This document shows positions 6,949-52,052 of a DNA stretch of 57,168 nt, one piece after another. Position numbers and translations under genes: made by a program. Within the stretch, counting starts at the first letter, position 1, and every line of letters starts with the position of its first letter. Source of the DNA: a virus (taxonomy: Duplodnaviria; Caudoviricetes); IMG/VR virus record IMGVR_UViG_3300026026_000119, positions 1 through 57,168 of that record. The stretch is one strand, 5' to 3'. The notes below the pieces were generated by a model that saw only the letters and a list, made by a program, of their open reading frames with translations, did no database searches and had not been told where the DNA came from.

Positions 6949-7143
6949 CTAACCCGCTTTTACCATCCTCTCGCGAACCTTACTGGCAGAGCGCTTTAGA
7001 TTCGGAAAACCGCCCCATACCCTCGTTATTTTTTTCATATCGAAGTAATCAACGGCGCTATGGCCAGCCCAGAACTCGCGCTCCTGATCCTCGTTTTCAA
7101 AAACCGGGATTGGCTTTATCTTTTTACTTTCTCTTTTGTTCAT
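6949..7143 (-). CDS. BrnA/CopG-type antitoxin, lacking the C-terminal RHH domain (64 aa)
   Basis: IPVFENEDQEREFWAGHSAVDYFD...FPNLK is the CopG_antitoxin N-terminus; ATG overlaps the toxin 3' end. Confidence 0.8.
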   Translation of the reverse strand: MNKRESKKIKPIPVFENEDQEREFWAGHSAVDYFDMKKITRVWGGFPNLKRSASKVRERMVKAG

Positions 7144-7435
7144 ACACTTTACTTTCTTCTCGGTTCTGGTCTCGCGCTGAGATAACCCGTACAAGTTTCG
7201 CTCGAATGGTAAAAACTATAAACAGACACCGTCCTTCATCCGTCTTTCCGTAAACGCCATAACGCGGCTCAACGGAGGAATGATTGAGGTCTTCAAAAAA
7301 ATCGATTGGCTCGTTGTGAAAAACCTGCTCCGCCTCTTCAACCGAGACTCGATGCGATTTCCAGTTCTTGTACAAATTGCCCTCGTCCCATTGAAAGCCT
7401 TGTCGAACGTCAATGAACCTTAGAGCATCGTTCAC
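7124..7435 (-). CDS. brnT: BrnT-family ribonuclease toxin
   Basis: FQWDEGNLYKNWKSHRVSVEEAEQVF...HS..EPRY...VFTIR...RVISAR...E...Y. Confidence 0.92.
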   Translation of the reverse strand: MNDALRFIDVRQGFQWDEGNLYKNWKSHRVSVEEAEQVFHNEPIDFFEDLNHSSVEPRYGVYGKTDEGRCLFIVFTIRAKLVRVISARDQNREESKVYEQKRK

Positions 7436-7440
7436 AAACT

Positions 7441-7470
7441 TACGTTATACCCGCAACGTATAGGCGTCAA
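7441..7470 (-). promoter_or_regulatory. Sigma70-like promoter of the TA operon with overlapping inverted repeat
   Basis: TTGACG-N17-TAACGT, -10 box 6 nt before the GTG; TACGTT...AACGTA inverted repeat 7441-7460. Confidence 0.65.
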
Positions 7471-36865: not shown

Positions 36866-37470
36866 TCACATGTCCGTTTCTAGGCGCGATGCCATTGAGT
36901 CCTTTTCCCGTCTTAGTAGCTCCGCTACCTCATCAGCGAGCATGTAAAACCTCCGAGCTGGCATTGCCAAAACAACGTTGACGGGTTGATGCCCGTATCG
37001 GCCGAGAAACGCCACCGTTTGCATGATCGTCCGCTCAAGCGGTGGCGAGTGCTGGATCTGGTAGGCAAAAGAGCCGACTGTTAGCCAACCTCCACTGTTT
37101 CGTCCGCTAAAAAATCTTTCATGTCAGCGGGCTCGGGCGTATGGATTTTTCCGTAGGCGCCGATAACAAACTGTCGGCCTTTCTCTCCTATCGCGTTCCA
37201 AATCCGATCCGAAGAGCCATCGGCTGTAGTGACCTTCTGACCGTTGGCTTTTCGCAAAGCCTCAAGAGGCGCCTCGTACAAAAACCGCAAGCTGTTATTG
37301 CCGCATCGGTTTAGAACGAGAAGCATTTCGTCCATGGTCAGCTCCATAAGGCCCACGGTATTGACGCCCGAGCGAGTGGAGATTTCTTTATTGAATTTAT
37401 ACACGTATACAGGCCGACCGGTAACCCGCTCGGCTTGCTCTAGTAGTTTCTGTTCAAACTCGTTTGCCAT
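36866..37470 (-). CDS. Tail assembly chaperone, -1 frameshift-extended (GT-like) form
   Basis: Slippery T TTT TTA at 37114-37108; the -1 frame stays open for 80 codons to TGA 36868-36866, 1 nt before the tape measure ATG. Confidence 0.8.
37081..37470 (-). CDS. Tail assembly chaperone (G-like)
   Basis: Between tube and tape measure; GAGGG RBS. Confidence 0.8.
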   Translation of the reverse strand: MANEFEQKLLEQAERVTGRPVYVYKFNKEISTRSGVNTVGLMELTMDEMLLVLNRCGNNSLRFLYEAPLEALRKANGQKVTTADGSSDRIWNAIGEKGRQFVIGAYGKIHTPEPADMKDFLADETVEVG

Positions 37471-37506
37471 TTGTCTTTCCCTCTTTTATCGCCCCGCTTA
37501 TATGCC

Positions 37507-37935
37507 TCAGTTGACTACCGTGGCTTCAGGAGCTTCGAAATCTAGCTTCACGGTACCGAACTCATTTCGGCCACCGAACGTCATGGGAATGTCGCCAAAC
37601 TCGACATCGGAAATCGTGATACGAGGACGGCTCCCGTTAGGATGTTGCAAGGTGGCTTTGATATTGATTTTGGTTCCCGCGGTGCGCGTTCGAGCACGGC
37701 CCACGACCTTATTGATAAAGTCCAAGACGCCCGTGTTATCAAGGTGCATCTCAAGGTTTCCCGAGATACCCATAAACAGCGAGTCCTTGCGGTTAGTGGT
37801 CTCGTTCAAATAGCCTTCCGAGCTTTTGCTTAGCTGCCAGGTGACCTCGAAACTTCGGATGGCGGTGAGGTTTCTTTGAGGAGAACCGTCGGCGATTATT
37901 GTGATTTCAACCTCTTGACCTTTAATCCTTTGCAT
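37507..37935 (-). CDS. Tail tube protein
   Basis: 142-aa beta-rich ORF directly after sheath. Confidence 0.8.
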   Translation of the reverse strand: MQRIKGQEVEITIIADGSPQRNLTAIRSFEVTWQLSKSSEGYLNETTNRKDSLFMGISGNLEMHLDNTGVLDFINKVVGRARTRTAGTKINIKATLQHPNGSRPRITISDVEFGDIPMTFGGRNEFGTVKLDFEAPEATVVN

Positions 37936-37958
37936 TTGCTATTTCTCCGTGGTTGACC

Positions 37959-38008
37959 CTTAAACGACGAAAGGCTCGCTTGGTAATCCAAACGAGCCCT
38001 ATCCTCTC
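37959..38008 (-). terminator. Terminator-like hairpin, repeat unit 2
   Basis: GGCTCGTTTGG-ATTA-CCAAGCGAGCC followed by TTTCGTCGTTT. Confidence 0.55.
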
Positions 38009-38014
38009 AATACG

Positions 38015-38064
38015 CTTAAACGAGAAAAGGCTGTCTCGGTTTCCCGAAACAGCCCTATCCTCTC
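38015..38064 (-). terminator. Terminator-like hairpin, repeat unit 1
   Basis: GGCTGTTTCGG-GAAA-CCGAGACAGCC followed by TTTTCTCGTTT. Confidence 0.65.
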
Positions 38065-38122
38065 GAAAGAGAGTGCGGCCGCAGTAGCTCAGGGGGGTGT
38101 CCGAGCTACATTTCTCACTTAT

Positions 38123-38151
38123 AGAATAGGTGAGTTACGTAGATCGGTCAA
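38123..38151 (-). promoter_or_regulatory. Sigma70-like promoter downstream of sheath
   Basis: TTGACC (38151-38146)-N17-TATTCT (38128-38123). Confidence 0.7.
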
Positions 38152-38155
38152 GACT

Positions 38156-40210
38156 CTACGCCGCTTGCGCGATAACCACGCCTTCGCCGATATTGCACTG
38201 AAGCACAATAAAGTCAGAGGTGGGAGTGGTACGCACTCGTACGATAATCACGTAAATGCCCTTGGCCTCTAACTCGGGAGTATTGCCGCCGTGAGAATCG
38301 ACTTGGTACTGCGTAATGCGACTTGCCGCGGGGTTATTGGGGCTAAGCAGCTCGTTGAGAAACGCTACTACCTCGGTCTCGGCATCGTCTTTGAGACCTT
38401 GGGTAAGAGGCTGTTTGGAAAAGTATACGAGCCGCTCAGCAAGCGAGTCCTCGATGAAGTCCGCGATGCGCCTGCGATTGATGTTGGTCTCGCCCGAGAC
38501 AAGACTTGTGGTGATACCGCTCTGAATGATGGGACCGGCGGTCCGGTCGATACGAATGCCTGCTATGCCCTTGTTGCGCATCAGAGTGTACTCACCGATT
38601 CCAAGCTCTCCTACTCCGCGCTGAATACCCATGATGGGCGAGAAGATTTCCGGTACCGGCGCCGACGCTTGACCGGGGTTGCGCTCCGGAGGCAGTACCG
38701 ACAAAAGACTCGCTAAATAATGGTCCATCGAGTCGTCGAGTATGCCGTCCTCGGTAAAGTCGCTATTGGCCGTGGCAATCAATGTACCGACCGCCTCGGG
38801 CACTGAATGTACAACGCCTGGCCATGCGTAAAAAACGCGCTCGTTTCGAGTCGCTCCTACCCCTGGATCGGAATCTGATACGGCGCTAAGCACGCTCAGG
38901 GTTTGCACCGAGGGCGAGATAATCGCAACGCGTCCCCGGCCCTTGTTGCTCGCTTCCAGCACGTGGCTCTTGAGCTTAGTGGCAATGGTGGAGTACTTGC
39001 GAGCCGCTACCACGATATTGATATCGCGAGTGGGCGATTGCTGGCTCACAAGGCCATCGATAGCCGATTGGTACAAAGCAGCGATTGCGGCGGAGGCCGC
39101 CGGGTTAGACACCTGAGTAGCGGCGGTAAAGGCGGTGGCGGTAGTGGGGTGAATCATCCCGCCTAAGCCGCTTAGCACGTCGGCCGAATCGCCCGTAAGA
39201 GCAGCGGGCGCAACCGCGGGCACAAGAAGTCCAGCGGCAGTAAACGTGCCGTCTGTAAGACCGCCAGAAGAGTTTGTGATCGGACGAATCGGAATGATAA
39301 AGCCGCCCGCGTCGTTCGAGTCGTAGCCGCCGGGAGTCGAAGTGCCAAGGGTGCGCTCGGGCGCACTGTCGGCGTCAGGCGAGCGGTGAAGCCGCCATGG
39401 AATCGCGGTCCTGTCGCCAGCAATGGCAAAGGTAACGCCATCGAGCCGCTCGATCACGATATCGTGACCGGTAGACGGCGTGCTGTAGACGCGATAGGTG
39501 CCCGCTTCCGCGGGTGCAACCGCTCCGGCGTTGTTGTTGCCAATAACGATAATGTCGCCCTTACGAGCGCCGAGGTTGCCATCGGGCCGCACGATTGTGG
39601 ACCAATCAATAGCGGCGGAGCTAAACGTCTGAGTCACGGCAGTAGAGGCGGTAGCGAGCGTGCCGCCTACTCCGTCTGCGATAGTCGGGTAGTTAGTAAA
39701 CTGTACTCGCTTTGCGACCTTGAGACGACCGGTGCTGATACGGAACTCTCGGCCCGCTGAAATCGTAGCTCCCTCAACGGGCACAACGGGCGTCGTGTTG
39801 GTAGAGGTAGTGCATAGCGGAAGCTGGCGCCAGAAGCGCGAGCCTTGAGCCGAAGCGAGATTGACGGGCGCTACTATCAAGCGGCTAAACTTCTTGTTTC
39901 TAAGCGCGGCAAAGAGATTGCCTAAGCTCTTGCCGAACTCGCCCAACGTGGCATCCCAGCCGCCGATTTTGTTTACCAAGTCGCTAGAGCCGAACACCTC
40001 GGTCGGCTGTATCTTGGTAGAGATTACTCCCGCGGTATCGTAGGTAGTAGCCAAGCCGCAATCGGCCGCTTCCCCTACAAACGCGACGGTTCCGACGCCC
40101 ACGCCATTGACCGCTCCTGGTGGCGGCAAGTCAATGATGATCACGCCTTCGATTTGTCGGATGACTTCTACGCCGGGATAGAAACCGTATCTGCGAATAA
40201 AACCAGCCAT
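38156..40210 (-). CDS. Tail sheath protein
   Basis: PGV.V...GVGVGTVAFVGE N-terminus; INRRRIADFI...FLNEL C-terminus; AGGAGG RBS. Confidence 0.92.
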   Translation of the reverse strand: MAGFIRRYGFYPGVEVIRQIEGVIIIDLPPPGAVNGVGVGTVAFVGEAADCGLATTYDTAGVISTKIQPTEVFGSSDLVNKIGGWDATLGEFGKSLGNLFAALRNKKFSRLIVAPVNLASAQGSRFWRQLPLCTTSTNTTPVVPVEGATISAGREFRISTGRLKVAKRVQFTNYPTIADGVGGTLATASTAVTQTFSSAAIDWSTIVRPDGNLGARKGDIIVIGNNNAGAVAPAEAGTYRVYSTPSTGHDIVIERLDGVTFAIAGDRTAIPWRLHRSPDADSAPERTLGTSTPGGYDSNDAGGFIIPIRPITNSSGGLTDGTFTAAGLLVPAVAPAALTGDSADVLSGLGGMIHPTTATAFTAATQVSNPAASAAIAALYQSAIDGLVSQQSPTRDINIVVAARKYSTIATKLKSHVLEASNKGRGRVAIISPSVQTLSVLSAVSDSDPGVGATRNERVFYAWPGVVHSVPEAVGTLIATANSDFTEDGILDDSMDHYLASLLSVLPPERNPGQASAPVPEIFSPIMGIQRGVGELGIGEYTLMRNKGIAGIRIDRTAGPIIQSGITTSLVSGETNINRRRIADFIEDSLAERLVYFSKQPLTQGLKDDAETEVVAFLNELLSPNNPAASRITQYQVDSHGGNTPELEAKGIYVIIVRVRTTPTSDFIVLQCNIGEGVVIAQAA

Positions 40211-42017: not shown

Positions 42018-42482
42018 TTATCCGTACACCGCTATCGAGCGACCTGGGCCGCCACCGCGGTACCGATGAGCATAGGGGTAGAACGGCACTCCGAGCGCAT
42101 CGCAAAGCCTTTTGCCCCATCGGACGTATTCTCGCTCGATAAGGTCGGGATGAGTAAGTCCCGATTGCGCTCCTCGAAGACGAATCTCGCCTATCTGCTC
42201 GACGGCGAGAAAGCAGCCGACGTTTTCGAGCTGCTCTTCGAACTTATTAAGATTGGCTATACACCTTCGCACAATCTCTACGCCGTAGGGATTGGTCAGA
42301 AGGTTATTGATAGCGGACTCGACTAAGAACGCGGTCTGTACGGGGCGCGAGACGCCAAACTGCAAAGACGCGGCCACCATGGTCGAGCCAAACGAAGTTA
42401 GCATATATCCGAGGTGAAACCTGATTTGCGACTTCTCTTCTTCGGTCAACGCGACTGATGTTGGCATAGTCCGTTTCGCCAT
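42018..42482 (-). CDS. Head-tail adaptor-like protein
   Basis: LTEEEKSQIRFHLGY N-terminus; helical; position after capsid. Start uncertain. Confidence 0.6.
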   Translation of the reverse strand: MAKRTMPTSVALTEEEKSQIRFHLGYMLTSFGSTMVAASLQFGVSRPVQTAFLVESAINNLLTNPYGVEIVRRCIANLNKFEEQLENVGCFLAVEQIGEIRLRGAQSGLTHPDLIEREYVRWGKRLCDALGVPFYPYAHRYRGGGPGRSIAVYG

Positions 42483-43231
42483 TCCTCGGGAGTTTTTGAA
42501 AACTTACTTGCGTTACAGCTTCTACAAGCGGGGGCCAGGTTCTCTTTTATATTATTCCCTCCGCGAGAAATCGGCAATATGTGGTCGATCTCGGTTGCGG
42601 GTTCACCGCAATAAACACACGGTGTTTTCAATAACTCTTTTCGTTCTTGAGCCGTCAAGCCGTTTTTTCGAAGTGCATATCGCTGCTTGTAATACTTTTT
42701 CCTAAGAGCCTTGTGCTTGTCGGGGTACTTTATTTCCCAGCGTTTTGCCGATTCGTTTCGCTTTTTAGGATCGGCGGCATATCGTCTTTTCGCACGCTCT
42801 TTTTCGTAATCGGGATGTTTATCTATCCAAGCCTTGACCGATGCCTGTGCTTTTTTAGGATGACGTTTTCTGTACTTTCTTTGAAGCCTCGCGTGTGCGC
42901 CGGGGTTTTTCTCTCGCCATAGGTACATTCTTTGCTTTTCGCATACTTTGCACTTGGGCTCGTAACACAAAAACCTACCGTCTTTTTTCCTGGGCCAGAA
43001 TTCGGTAACGGGCTTTTCCGCTCCACATCCCTTACACGTCTTTACGGAAAGAGCCTTGTCCCGAACGTGCTCTTTGAAACCCGCCGCCTCCCTCTTTCCC
43101 CTATACCTTTCGCGATAAAGCTCGTTGTAACACGCGCGGCATTGATTTCTAGGTACCTTGGATTTGCCCGTGGCGCCGAACTCGACTATCGATTGCTCAC
43201 GATTACAAATGGAGCACAACTTCTGTTCCAT
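42446..43231 (-). CDS. Free-standing HNH endonuclease with two Zn-finger repeats
   Basis: CxxC..EF..CxxC twice; CVYCG..ATEIDHILPISRGG.N...NLAPACRSCNASK. Confidence 0.92.
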   Translation of the reverse strand: MEQKLCSICNREQSIVEFGATGKSKVPRNQCRACYNELYRERYRGKREAAGFKEHVRDKALSVKTCKGCGAEKPVTEFWPRKKDGRFLCYEPKCKVCEKQRMYLWREKNPGAHARLQRKYRKRHPKKAQASVKAWIDKHPDYEKERAKRRYAADPKKRNESAKRWEIKYPDKHKALRKKYYKQRYALRKNGLTAQERKELLKTPCVYCGEPATEIDHILPISRGGNNIKENLAPACRSCNASKFSKTPEEWRNGLCQHQSR

Positions 43232-50557: not shown

Positions 50558-50896
50558 CTATCCGTTCGCTTCAACAAGGCTCTCTCGGCGGTGTCTTTGG
50601 ATATCTTTCTTTAGCCGTTTAGGAACCCGATTTACCGCCCTTGCGATTGACCATTCAACAAGCGTGTTTCTGATTCCAAACCAGCACGTCTTTATCCGCC
50701 ACGCGAGTAAAAACCATAGAAGCTTTGAAGCGGCCTTGTGCGAGACGTTGAACATGACCATCTCGCGTTTTCCGTGTATGACAAGTATCCCCTCGATTTT
50801 GGCAATCACCGCTACTTCTCTGTTGTCGGCTTCGACGAACCGAAAGGCGCGCTCGGCGCCGATTCCGATAAACCTATCCCAAAGGCTTGGTTTCAT
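50558..50896 (-). CDS. Hypothetical protein
   Basis: GAGGGG RBS, coupled start. Confidence 0.65.
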   Translation of the reverse strand: MKPSLWDRFIGIGAERAFRFVEADNREVAVIAKIEGILVIHGKREMVMFNVSHKAASKLLWFLLAWRIKTCWFGIRNTLVEWSIARAVNRVPKRLKKDIQRHRRESLVEANG

Positions 50897-51528
50897 TTCT
50901 TACCCCTCTTGGTTTGCGCCTCCATAGCGTCTAGCCGCGTGTAGTAATCGGGTATTTCCGCCAGGTGGTCTTTGGTAATTGCCTTGGCTATGTCCCGATC
51001 ATCGGTGTGTTCGAGCTCGTGCTCGATACCCATGGCAAGTTGAGTCGGATCGAACTTGCTGTCGTCCAAATCGCTATGTTTCCCTACCGGCCCGTTTTGC
51101 TCTTTTTTTTTATCCGTCTCTCGGTTTTGCTCGTTGGGCTTTTGCTCGCCTACTCCCTCTTGTCGCGCCTCTTGGTGAATCGAGTCATGGCATTTATCGC
51201 AAATGGTAGCCATGTTGTTGAGCTCGTTGATGTGGCCCTTTTTCTTGAGCCACTCGCTGTCCGGGATACCGCCCTTGTGATGAAGGCCAATGGGGCTATC
51301 GGTACGACCGCATTTTTTGCACGTGTAGCCATCGCGCCTAAACACGTGAAGGGCAACACTGGCGGGCAGTCCCCCTACTCCGTTGTTATGGAGCTTGACG
51401 CCTTTGGCCTTGGCCTCTTGGCGCATCTTGATAAGCGCGCCCCGCTCTTCTCGGCTCATGTTGATACGCTTTTTGTCGCGCTCTTGTTTAGCCTCGGCCT
51501 TGGCGAGTATGACTAGCTTTTCGCTCAT
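50893..51528 (-). CDS. HNH nuclease fused to a DUF5661-like domain
   Basis: VFRRDGYTCKKCG...LHH...N..TICDKCHDSIH, then QLAMGIEHELEHTDD..IA..I.KDHLAEIPDYYTRL; start re-assigned to 51528. Confidence 0.8.
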   Translation of the reverse strand: MSEKLVILAKAEAKQERDKKRINMSREERGALIKMRQEAKAKGVKLHNNGVGGLPASVALHVFRRDGYTCKKCGRTDSPIGLHHKGGIPDSEWLKKKGHINELNNMATICDKCHDSIHQEARQEGVGEQKPNEQNRETDKKKEQNGPVGKHSDLDDSKFDPTQLAMGIEHELEHTDDRDIAKAITKDHLAEIPDYYTRLDAMEAQTKRGKK

Positions 51529-52052
51529 CGCGCCACCTGTACTAGCGGTTTTTCGGGACCGGGTCCCCGATTGAACTCCACCTCTACCCAGCTCGGAAGA
51601 TGAGCAAGCGAGCGCTCGAAACTCGGACCGCACTGTTTGCAGCTATACGCTACGCCAAGCCTAACGTAAGGCCGCGGCTTTCCGTCCGGACCGCGAAACT
51701 GCACGATGCGCTTGAAAAGTTCTGTCGGAGGGGCGCCATTGACCAGGGGCGCAAGACCGTTATCATTTGCCACCTCCGAATACGGCCCGAACGTAATGGC
51801 GCGCATGATTACTTGCTGAGAGCCGCATGCTTGGCATTTAGCGTTCAGAGGAAAGGCGTGTTTAGCGTGCATTTCCTCCGGCGTCATCCGGCCTCCCATG
51901 AAACGCTTACGGTGAATGTTTTCAGTTTTTGCCATAGTCTTTGCCATTGTCGTTAGCGGGTTTGCTGTACTTGGAATGGCCGAGTACTCGTGCGGTGGCG
52001 CGCTGCACCTGGTAAGCTCGTTTGATGCCACTGCCGCGGCATATCTCGTCAA
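51525..52052 (-). CDS. Zn-finger (CxxC...CxxC) hypothetical protein
   Basis: CQACG and CKQCG; start uncertain. Confidence 0.65.
   Translation of the reverse strand: MTRYAAAVASNELTRCSAPPHEYSAIPSTANPLTTMAKTMAKTENIHRKRFMGGRMTPEEMHAKHAFPLNAKCQACGSQQVIMRAITFGPYSEVANDNGLAPLVNGAPPTELFKRIVQFRGPDGKPRPYVRLGVAYSCKQCGPSFERSLAHLPSWVEVEFNRGPGPEKPLVQVAR

Follow-up and report, generated by a model that had tools for sequence, protein, structure and literature searches.

The window analyzed here, positions 1–57,168 of IMG/VR record IMGVR_UViG_3300026026_000119, is a 57,168-bp viral metagenome contig of the Caudoviricetes with an estimated completeness of 65%. Our subject is the 220-nucleotide (nt) spacer that lies, on the minus strand, between the gene for a tail sheath protein of 684 amino acids (aa) and the gene for a 142-aa protein that, judging from its modeled structure, is the tail tube of a contractile system. 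The spacer holds a sigma-70-like promoter, a short hairpin (P1), a longer terminator-like hairpin (P2) followed by a U-rich tail, and a second unit with a further hairpin of this kind (P2′; Table 1). An earlier note on this DNA had described the promoter, the hairpins, a palindrome, and two repeat units on the minus strand between sheath and tube, with about 30 kb of tail and lysis genes downstream; all of these are found in their places, and so is the setting. The note had also taken the twin, covarying repeat for the element itself. That part is not supported: comparison with related loci indicates that the conserved unit is a single-copy promoter–P1–P2 cassette, not a twin repeat.

Conservation and copy number of the cassette

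Homologues of the sheath protein number 335 at E ≤ 0.001 among 8000 candidates scored, and all are metagenomic; among the cultured phages of INPHARED, neither blastn with the locus nor tblastn with the sheath protein gave a match. A single-protein query for related loci returned no result, but an alignment query succeeded and fetched 85 loci (80 viral and five from genome bins). Sheath and tube genes could both be located in 75 of these, with spacers ranging from 3 to 2287 nt, and ATAGGG occurs within the sheath-to-tube spacer in 61 of the 75.

The shared cassette starts with TTGAC(G/A)-N17-TAGnnT and, after 9–43 nt that often include a hairpin, continues with GCYNCAC. Next come P1, which has 4–9 bp and freely changing arms, the linker (G/A)AUAGGGC, and P2, a helix of 12–20 pairs that begins with the GGGC of the linker. 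The 3′ end reads GCC(C/U)UUUYNNNUUU, then GGAGG, then the start codon. The length of P1, and hence the spacing between GCYNCAC and AUAGGGC, varies widely in the sequences viewed.

A covariance model of the cassette (R1) matches in full once in the window (47.6 bits) and once, on the sheath strand, in each of 57 among the 85 related loci. When whole contigs were searched, each of five relatives gave one strong match; three of these are complete (100%) genomes of 92–94 kb. The model also recovered two loci that are not in its seed, L025 and L078. Such a covariance-model search had been proposed in the earlier note, and it shows conservation in related phages. No R1 match below E 0.1 occurs anywhere in six contigs whose spacers are short or different. 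The cassette is conserved in a large, uncultivated group of contractile-tailed myoviruses with genomes of about 90 kb.

Two further sets of loci were considered. The spacers of L064, L067, and L070 (123–130 nt) contain a different structure, two GC-rich hairpins without ATAGGG, and the covariance model matches neither these loci nor the whole L067 contig. A scan of viral contigs for the pattern GCCGCAC-N8-30-GATAGGGC yielded at least 120 stretches; among the 80 listed, three are true by the covariance model (L134, L140, and L164) and the rest are chance occurrences.

By its position across the family the cassette is tied to the tube gene. There are four loci (L038, L060, L066, and L072) in which no tube gene follows the sheath; here the cassette lies ~7–18 kb downstream of the sheath gene, and the tube gene stands directly after the cassette. 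Since the cassette precedes the tube gene even at this distance from the sheath, it belongs to the tube gene rather than to the sheath–tube junction, to which the earlier note had assigned it. Inserted genes in this region leave the stretch from promoter to U tail uninterrupted, lying either before or behind it; the clade of L057, L058, and L061 is the exception. Among these genes are HNH endonucleases in both orientations, additional genes of structural appearance, and, in L075, a tube paralogue, a 144-aa frame (spacer positions 128–562) that separates the cassette from the ordinary tube gene.

The HNH-type genes beside the cassette, which were recognized from motifs read by eye in translations, follow it directly on the same strand in L007, L017, and L061, stand on the opposite strand in L036, L040, L044, L057, and L059, and lie upstream of it in L076 and L079. 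The opposite-strand protein, of ~220–240 aa, is recurrent. The conserved sequence of the cassette may be a homing target. A divergent subgroup (L055, L057, L058, and L061) keeps GCGCAC-hairpin-AUACAAUAGGGC with P2 weak or replaced, and receives no covariance-model call.

RNA structure, promoter, and terminator-like hairpin

We measured covariation in a MAFFT alignment of 50 distinct sequences by five measures, none of which was reached in any of 500 shuffles. In the modeled helices 92.9% of cells are paired, compared with 73.1% in the shuffles, and 113 cells show changes on both sides, compared with 30. Sliding the partner by one to three columns lowers the pairing to 36%–62%. Two-sided changes are seen in 10 of the 13 modeled pairs (four of four in P1 and six of nine in P2), and 93% of P1 cells are paired across the 50 sequences. 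G-U pairs are frequent on the sense strand (for example, pair 54–96: GU 29, GC 20), which indicates that the structure forms as RNA of this strand; taken together, the covariation supports P1 and P2 as real sense-strand RNA helices. In the window itself, a 236-nt stretch of the spacer folds at −96.5 kcal/mol, against −67.8 ± 4.9 in 200 shuffles (z = −5.9; none of the 200 as good).

The conserved structured RNA with promoter and terminator-like hairpins that the earlier note had postulated is therefore borne out by the 85-locus comparison and the covariation, and its claim that the flanks are conserved beyond the needs of a plain terminator holds as well: GCYNCAC and AUAGGGC, the single-stranded nucleotides flanking P1, are near-invariant, the base of P2 is invariant, and the foot of P1 has a pyrimidine-rich 5′ arm. 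The motif is absent from Rfam. The Rfam scan suggested in the note gave no match at gathering score to Rfam 15 in the whole window, and permissive scans of the spacer and five relatives gave sub-threshold matches only. One of these, to Chloroflexi-1 (RF01698), covers P1 and P2 of relative L091 at 27.7 bits, compared with a gathering score of 80; we reject membership in that family, as the long hairpin accounts for the match, which is found neither in the window nor in four other relatives.

Conservation of this kind might alternatively reside in the DNA, as a protein-binding site, a target of recombination or of a homing endonuclease, or a promoter in hairpin form recognized by a phage polymerase or sigma factor. 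Homing-type endonuclease genes are indeed often inserted right beside the cassette, and a protein with a Sigma70_r2 domain is encoded by four of five relatives at E ≤ 0.1 (three of five pass the Pfam cut-off). However, on the other strand the frequent sense-strand G-U pairs would become A-C mismatches, the variable spacing of GCYNCAC and AUAGGGC is incompatible with a −35/−10 pair, and GATAGGGC is not repeated before other operons. An element acting at the DNA level is thus highly improbable. The Sigma70_r2 proteins are L095 (G002:2679–2861), L096, L097, and L098; G001 has a frame of 332 aa, the three complete genomes frames of 191–218 aa, and there is none in the window, itself only 65% complete.

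The promoter, too, is shared. Of 58 cassettes, 27 have a site of the form TTGAC-N17-19-[TC]AnnnT at 9–43 nt before GCYNCAC, compared with four of 1060 same-strand coding stretches used as controls; for TTGnnn-N16-18-TAnnnT upstream of GCYNCAC the figures are 34 of 58 and three of 1060, and a graded score agrees. Such sites are sparse: on the minus strand of the window, TTGAC-N17-19-TAnnnT occurs twice in total, the cassette promoter being one of the two, and one complete relative has two sites of the form TTGAC-N17-TAnnnT. The other site of the window, at 7470–7442, precedes a 103-aa open frame (7124–7435).

P2 has a median folding energy of −27 kcal/mol across the family, and at least five U occur in the 9 nt after it in 44 of 51 cassettes (background T, 0.18), so that family P2 combines the GC-rich hairpin and U-rich tract of an intrinsic terminator. 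Within the 57-kb window, P2, with its 13 pairs, is the strongest terminator-like structure of all. A terminator scan passes unit 1 of the window and fails unit 2, which has four U in eight.

Tandem terminators are common, and both hairpins of the window resemble intrinsic terminators; they could then simply close the transcript of head, neck, and sheath genes, the promoter-like sequence and the flanks being incidental or unrelated. We consider this very unlikely. The promoter lies before the terminator in the cassette and is conserved with it, so the hairpin cannot merely close an upstream operon ahead of a new start; moreover, the cassette travels with the tube and not with the sheath, P1 and the invariant flanks are unnecessary for termination, and two hairpins are present in this phage only.

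The second hairpin unit and other features of the window

The two direct units of the window were found by repeat search as 53-nt copies with 77% identity at a spacing of 56. Their identical 14-mer flank, GAGAGGATAGGGCT, has exactly two occurrences in the 57-kb window, and ATAGGG on the minus strand is found only in the cassette linker and in unit 2. Between the stems of P2 and P2′ there are three compensatory pairs (G-C to C-G, U-A to G-C, and C-G to U-A), and a U-G pair is kept, as the earlier note had observed. Identical flanks with compensatory stem changes appear to follow the same pattern of constraint as is seen across the family.

Contigs from two other DNA runs span the twin arrangement without differences (X2, 37355–38960; X3, 37957–38255); since both cross the two units unchanged, the duplication is real and not an assembly artifact. 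Unit 2 matches R1 only in part (positions 18–90; 27.3 bits with filters off). Its P1-like helix is made of UUCUC from the first U tail and the repeated GAGAG, and GCYNCAC is absent. The partial match and the missing motif show it to be a tandem duplication of the P2 half, specific to this lineage: twin units are present in no relative among the listed loci, and a pattern scan of metagenome contigs for the repeated flanks of the window gave 65 loci, none of them true by the covariance model, so that no closer relative with twin units was found. In two other loci, L227 and L229, part of the P2 base is present once more (AAUAGGGCGCAC and AGAGGGCGCAC), ~40 nt ahead of P1 and immediately preceding GCUACAC or GCUUCAC; this is another lineage-specific partial duplication within the cassette.

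The earlier note had also suggested a processed repeat RNA acting as a protein decoy. A decoy built on repeats should keep them, and the relatives do not, which leaves this proposal without evidence. Other array-type RNAs (a ToxI-like antitoxin or a CRISPR-repeat mimic) are rejected as well, as relatives have one cassette each and unit 2 is a partial copy.

Upstream of P1, the promoter boxes of the window (TTGACC at 38151–38146 and, after 17 nt, TATTCT at 38128–38123) lie within inverted repeats with arms of 6 nt (CGTAGA/TCTACG) and 5 nt (CTCAC/GTGAG). These repeats, reported in the earlier note, are present here and not evident in the relatives viewed, where no formal test was made; by our estimate, arms so short are expected by chance. 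The sequence of the following hairpin, P0, is not conserved: many relatives have some hairpin there, and others none. A start–stop pair, ATG TAG, stands after GAGAAA at the predicted 5′ end of the leader (38111–38106, minus strand) and is not evident in relatives whose sequences were viewed.

Table 1. Coordinates of sheath-to-tube features in the window
Feature	Position	Strand	Basis
Tail sheath gene, 684 aa; stop codon TAG at 38158–38156	38156–40210	−	Open reading frame list, PHROG, homologues
Sigma-70-like promoter, TTGACC-17-TATTCT; inferred transcription start near 38117	38123–38151	−	Consensus scan
Variable 5′ hairpin P0, GUAGCUCGG...CUGAGCUAC	38084–38109	−	Fold, relatives
Palindrome TGCGGCCGCA	38083–38074	−	Sequence
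Single-stranded motif GCCGCAC (family consensus GCYNCAC); last C opens P1	38073–38079	−	Two alignments
P1 hairpin, CUCUC-UUUC-GAGAG	38060–38073	−	Covariation
Conserved linker and helix base, GAUAGGGC	38052–38059	−	Relatives
P2 hairpin, 13 pairs, GAAA loop, terminator-like	38027–38056	−	Terminator scan, covariation
U-rich tail 1 (UUCUCGUUUA); includes UUCUC, which pairs with unit 2 GAGAG as well	38017–38026	−	
Repeated flank of unit 2, GAGAGGAUAGGGCU: copy of P1 3′ arm, linker, and P2 base	37995–38008	−	
P2′ hairpin of unit 2, 13 pairs, AUUA loop	37971–38000	−	Sequence, inverted repeat, fold
U-rich tail 2 (UCGUCGUUUA)	37961–37970	−	Sequence
Shine-Dalgarno sequence GGAGA of tube gene, 8 nt ahead of ATG	37944–37948	−	Sequence
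Tail tube gene, 142 aa	37507–37935	−	AlphaFold2 model and Foldseek

Gene order on the minus strand runs from the terminase large subunit, portal, head proteins, major head protein, and a neck or tail-completion protein to the sheath gene, the spacer, the 142-aa protein, a 129-aa protein, and the tape measure, and ends with baseplate hub and wedge, large fibre-like proteins, and an endolysin-like gene. The C-terminal part of the sheath protein matches the PHROG tail sheath family phrog_23 (E = 8.9e-6). The 142-aa protein has only a weak PHROG match, to a family of unknown function. Its AlphaFold2 model (pLDDT, 92.5), however, has as its best Foldseek matches entries that include the tubes of contractile systems, namely diffocin, PVC, AFP, and pyocin R2, with E values as low as 1.4e-7 and TM scores reaching 0.80, and on this structural evidence we call it the tail tube. 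Two HNH or endonuclease VII-type genes lie among the head genes (42446–43231 and 50893–51633, both minus strand).

A possible checkpoint before the tube gene

We tentatively prefer the view that the region comprises a dedicated promoter and a structured leader of the tube gene, with P2 serving as a promoter-proximal intrinsic terminator that is read through by way of a factor; the cassette would then probably be a checkpoint for tail gene expression. Under this scheme a polymerase coming from the cassette promoter or from the sheath gene would meet P2 and its U tract as an intrinsic terminator, and transcription would by default yield a short leader RNA, in this phage of about 100 nt (ending at tail 1) or about 155 nt (tail 2). 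Transcription of the tube gene and the ~30 kb of tail and lysis genes would require the terminator to be overridden. The override would most likely be the work of a trans-acting factor that reads the invariant nucleotides, either a phage protein or a polymerase modified at the leader, given that the flanks of P1 and the base of P2 are near-invariant and yet no alternative helix covaries. The single-stranded motifs, the P2 base, and the pyrimidines at the P1 foot exceed what a bare terminator needs, and we therefore take them as the candidate recognition site. The duplicated P2 half of this phage would place two terminators in series, which would fit a processive override better than a local one. 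There is no promoter between the two hairpins and the tube gene, so termination would have to be either efficiently overridden, as a processive mechanism predicts, or weak, as expected of hairpins that merely stabilize the transcript.

The order promoter–leader–terminator–gene would by analogy be that of an attenuator or of the lambdoid PR′–tR′ region. In phage lambda, 6S RNA is made from PR′ to tR′, and the late genes need processive antitermination by Q. The lambdoid PR′–qut–tR′ cassette and the one described here share, at the sequence level, a consensus-like promoter, intrinsic terminator(s) within about 100–200 nt, and a long late operon behind them; the short RNA as default product and the need of the late genes for a processive override are established for the former and proposed for the latter. 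In contrast, this phage family has no recognizable Q homologue, its cassette stands amid the structural genes, after terminase, portal, major head, neck, and sheath on the same strand, instead of before the whole late region, it conserves an RNA hairpin and RNA-level motifs and not a DNA element bound by Q, and no sigma-dependent pause element is identifiable in it.

The putL and putR sites of phage HK022 consist of two adjacent stem-loops, ~65–70 nt, just downstream of a promoter, and act with no antiterminator protein. Compared by description, the cassette likewise has two adjacent stem-loops just downstream of a promoter and no recognizable antiterminator protein, but its second stem carries a U tract and is terminator-like itself. 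A stronger form of the proposal builds on this likeness: the nascent leader (GCYNCAC, P1, and AUAGGGC), alone like put or with a small phage protein, would make the host polymerase terminator-resistant, with P2 as a built-in test terminator. We regard this as unlikely. The PeSL cassettes of T4-type phages, which are multicopy and tied to gene shuffling, also join a sigma-70 promoter to a stem-loop in a compact unit; the present cassette differs in being single-copy, with one strong covariance-model match per genome.

A further parallel is a small RNA that arises by premature termination in the 5′ untranslated region (UTR) of a conserved tail gene, gp182 of phiKZ and gp277 of 201phi2-1 (sRNA005 in the latter); its position and predicted structure are conserved in related phages, and the authors speculate on regulation of tail formation (PMC11512511). 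By description, both systems show a start and then a terminator in the 5′ UTR of a tail gene. However, phiKZ and 201phi2-1 belong to a different group, jumbo phages with their own polymerases, and the small RNA was found by transcript mapping, whereas our cassette is known from sequence comparison alone (PMC11512511). At survey level, a literature search showed no conserved element described upstream of the tail-tube genes of this phage family. Elements of this kind are already known. The novelty lies in the motif, in invariant flanks that come with no alternative helix, and in how strictly the cassette is linked to the tube gene.

Several observations weigh against the proposed regulated terminator. 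No candidate for the factor has come to light: the Q families PF06530 and PF03589 are found in none of five genomes (three of them complete), though control genomes matched, which bears out the absence of a Q-like antiterminator stated in the earlier note; the NusG NGN domain (PF02357) is likewise absent from the five phage genomes, while a host-encoded paralogue may exist; and a T7-type polymerase was found in none of the five, but the same search matched no control genome either. Nor does a classical structural switch gain support. For the one candidate antiterminator pairing, the upstream 14 nt with the 5′ strand of P2, a permutation test over 52 sequences gave mean duplex energies of −9.4 kcal/mol for cognate and −9.2 for non-cognate combinations (P = 0.23). 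The U tracts are interrupted (UUUYNNNUUU). In L057, L058, and L061 an inserted gene begins right after ATAGGGC, P2 is missing, and R1 makes no call. Relatives with sheath–tube spacers of 3–56 nt have no cassette at all, which means that it is not essential to this tail type. The invariance of ATAGGG in the seed alignment is partly circular, as the seed was picked by its presence, and L025 deviates from AUAGGGC with AUAGGCG. Evidence from RNA consists of one low-depth metatranscriptome contig (38077–38303) that shows neither start nor end and may reflect DNA carry-over; it runs from the 3′ end of the sheath gene across the promoter into the start of the leader, where it breaks off within GCCGCAC. 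The metatranscriptome data, from two runs (X14: 37061–37332, 38077–38303, and 38880–39151; X21: 39259–39464), are short assembled contigs that carry neither ends nor strand, and parts they leave uncovered are not evidence. Finally, a strong terminator, in this phage two, directly before the gene of a tube protein that is needed in hundreds of copies would be costly, which would favor a P2 that does not terminate.

For the attenuation or antitermination switch of the earlier note, then, the role is reasonable given ~30 kb of genes downstream, while the absence of a covarying alternative helix leaves a classical structural switch unsupported and a factor-free mechanism like that of put is without evidence. 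Other candidate mechanisms were tried and rejected. Pairing of the GCC of GCYNCAC with the GGC of AUAGGGC, judged by eye, shows one compensating change (A with U in L002) and two mismatches (L007 and L019). A CsrA site does not fit all aligned sequences (GGA is GAA in some), a mimic of the Shine-Dalgarno or anti-Shine-Dalgarno sequence in P1 fails as the P1 arms vary, and a sigma −10-like pause at TAGGGC lacks the T at −7.

Alternatively, the cassette could be a 5′ UTR for high expression, with a promoter that drives the tube gene, P1 and P2 blocking 5′-end-dependent decay, a U-rich stretch enhancing translation, and no meaningful termination at P2. The tube is a very abundant virion protein, and gene 10 of T7 combines a promoter of its own with a 5′ stem-loop and a U-rich enhancer. 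The cassette always stands directly before the tube gene or a gene inserted there, often with the Shine-Dalgarno site abutting the U tail, and a strong terminator before the tube looks counter-productive. We nevertheless find this reading doubtful. GC-rich hairpins of 12–20 pairs with U's behind them are the sites where bacterial polymerase terminates, and stabilizing hairpins have no need of invariant GCYNCAC and AUAGGGC. Furthermore, 10–40 nt precede P1 in many relatives, which places the hairpins some way in from the 5′ end, and in L036, L040, L044, L057, and L059 a convergent gene lies between cassette and tube.

The cassette could also be the gene of a trans-acting small RNA of ~65–110 nt, with GCYNCAC as seed or protein-binding site for action on host or phage targets elsewhere and the tube neighborhood as mere synteny. 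It would be an autonomous promoter-to-terminator unit, kept together through most rearrangements and provided with a conserved single-stranded 5′ motif, and the small RNAs derived from 5′ UTRs in phiKZ and 201phi2-1 offer a precedent (PMC11512511). On the other side, no target is evident: complements of the 7-mer, sought in the window and one complete relative, occur at roughly chance frequency and lie dispersed within genes, and the tight link to the start of the tube gene in every genome examined argues for a role in cis. As an independent gene we consider a small RNA rather improbable; as a 5′ UTR-derived product it is compatible with the leader model, and the two can coexist.

The cassette adds to the phage RNAs a covariation-backed motif without an Rfam family and a compact promoter–leader–terminator part, and it shows that repeat-like features of one genome can be lineage-specific duplications of a single conserved element. 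Should P2 prove to be a regulated terminator, it would be a control point separating expression of the head, neck, and sheath genes from that of the tube, baseplate, fibre, and lysis genes, and the RNA, ~65 nt with roughly 15 near-invariant nucleotides, would be a bait for a new RNA-binding or polymerase-modifying factor. If the leader were an antitermination device, it would open the way to expression of the tube gene and of another ~30 kb that encode tail and lysis functions, and would be a timing switch for tail synthesis in a phage family without a Q, N, or NusG-type factor.

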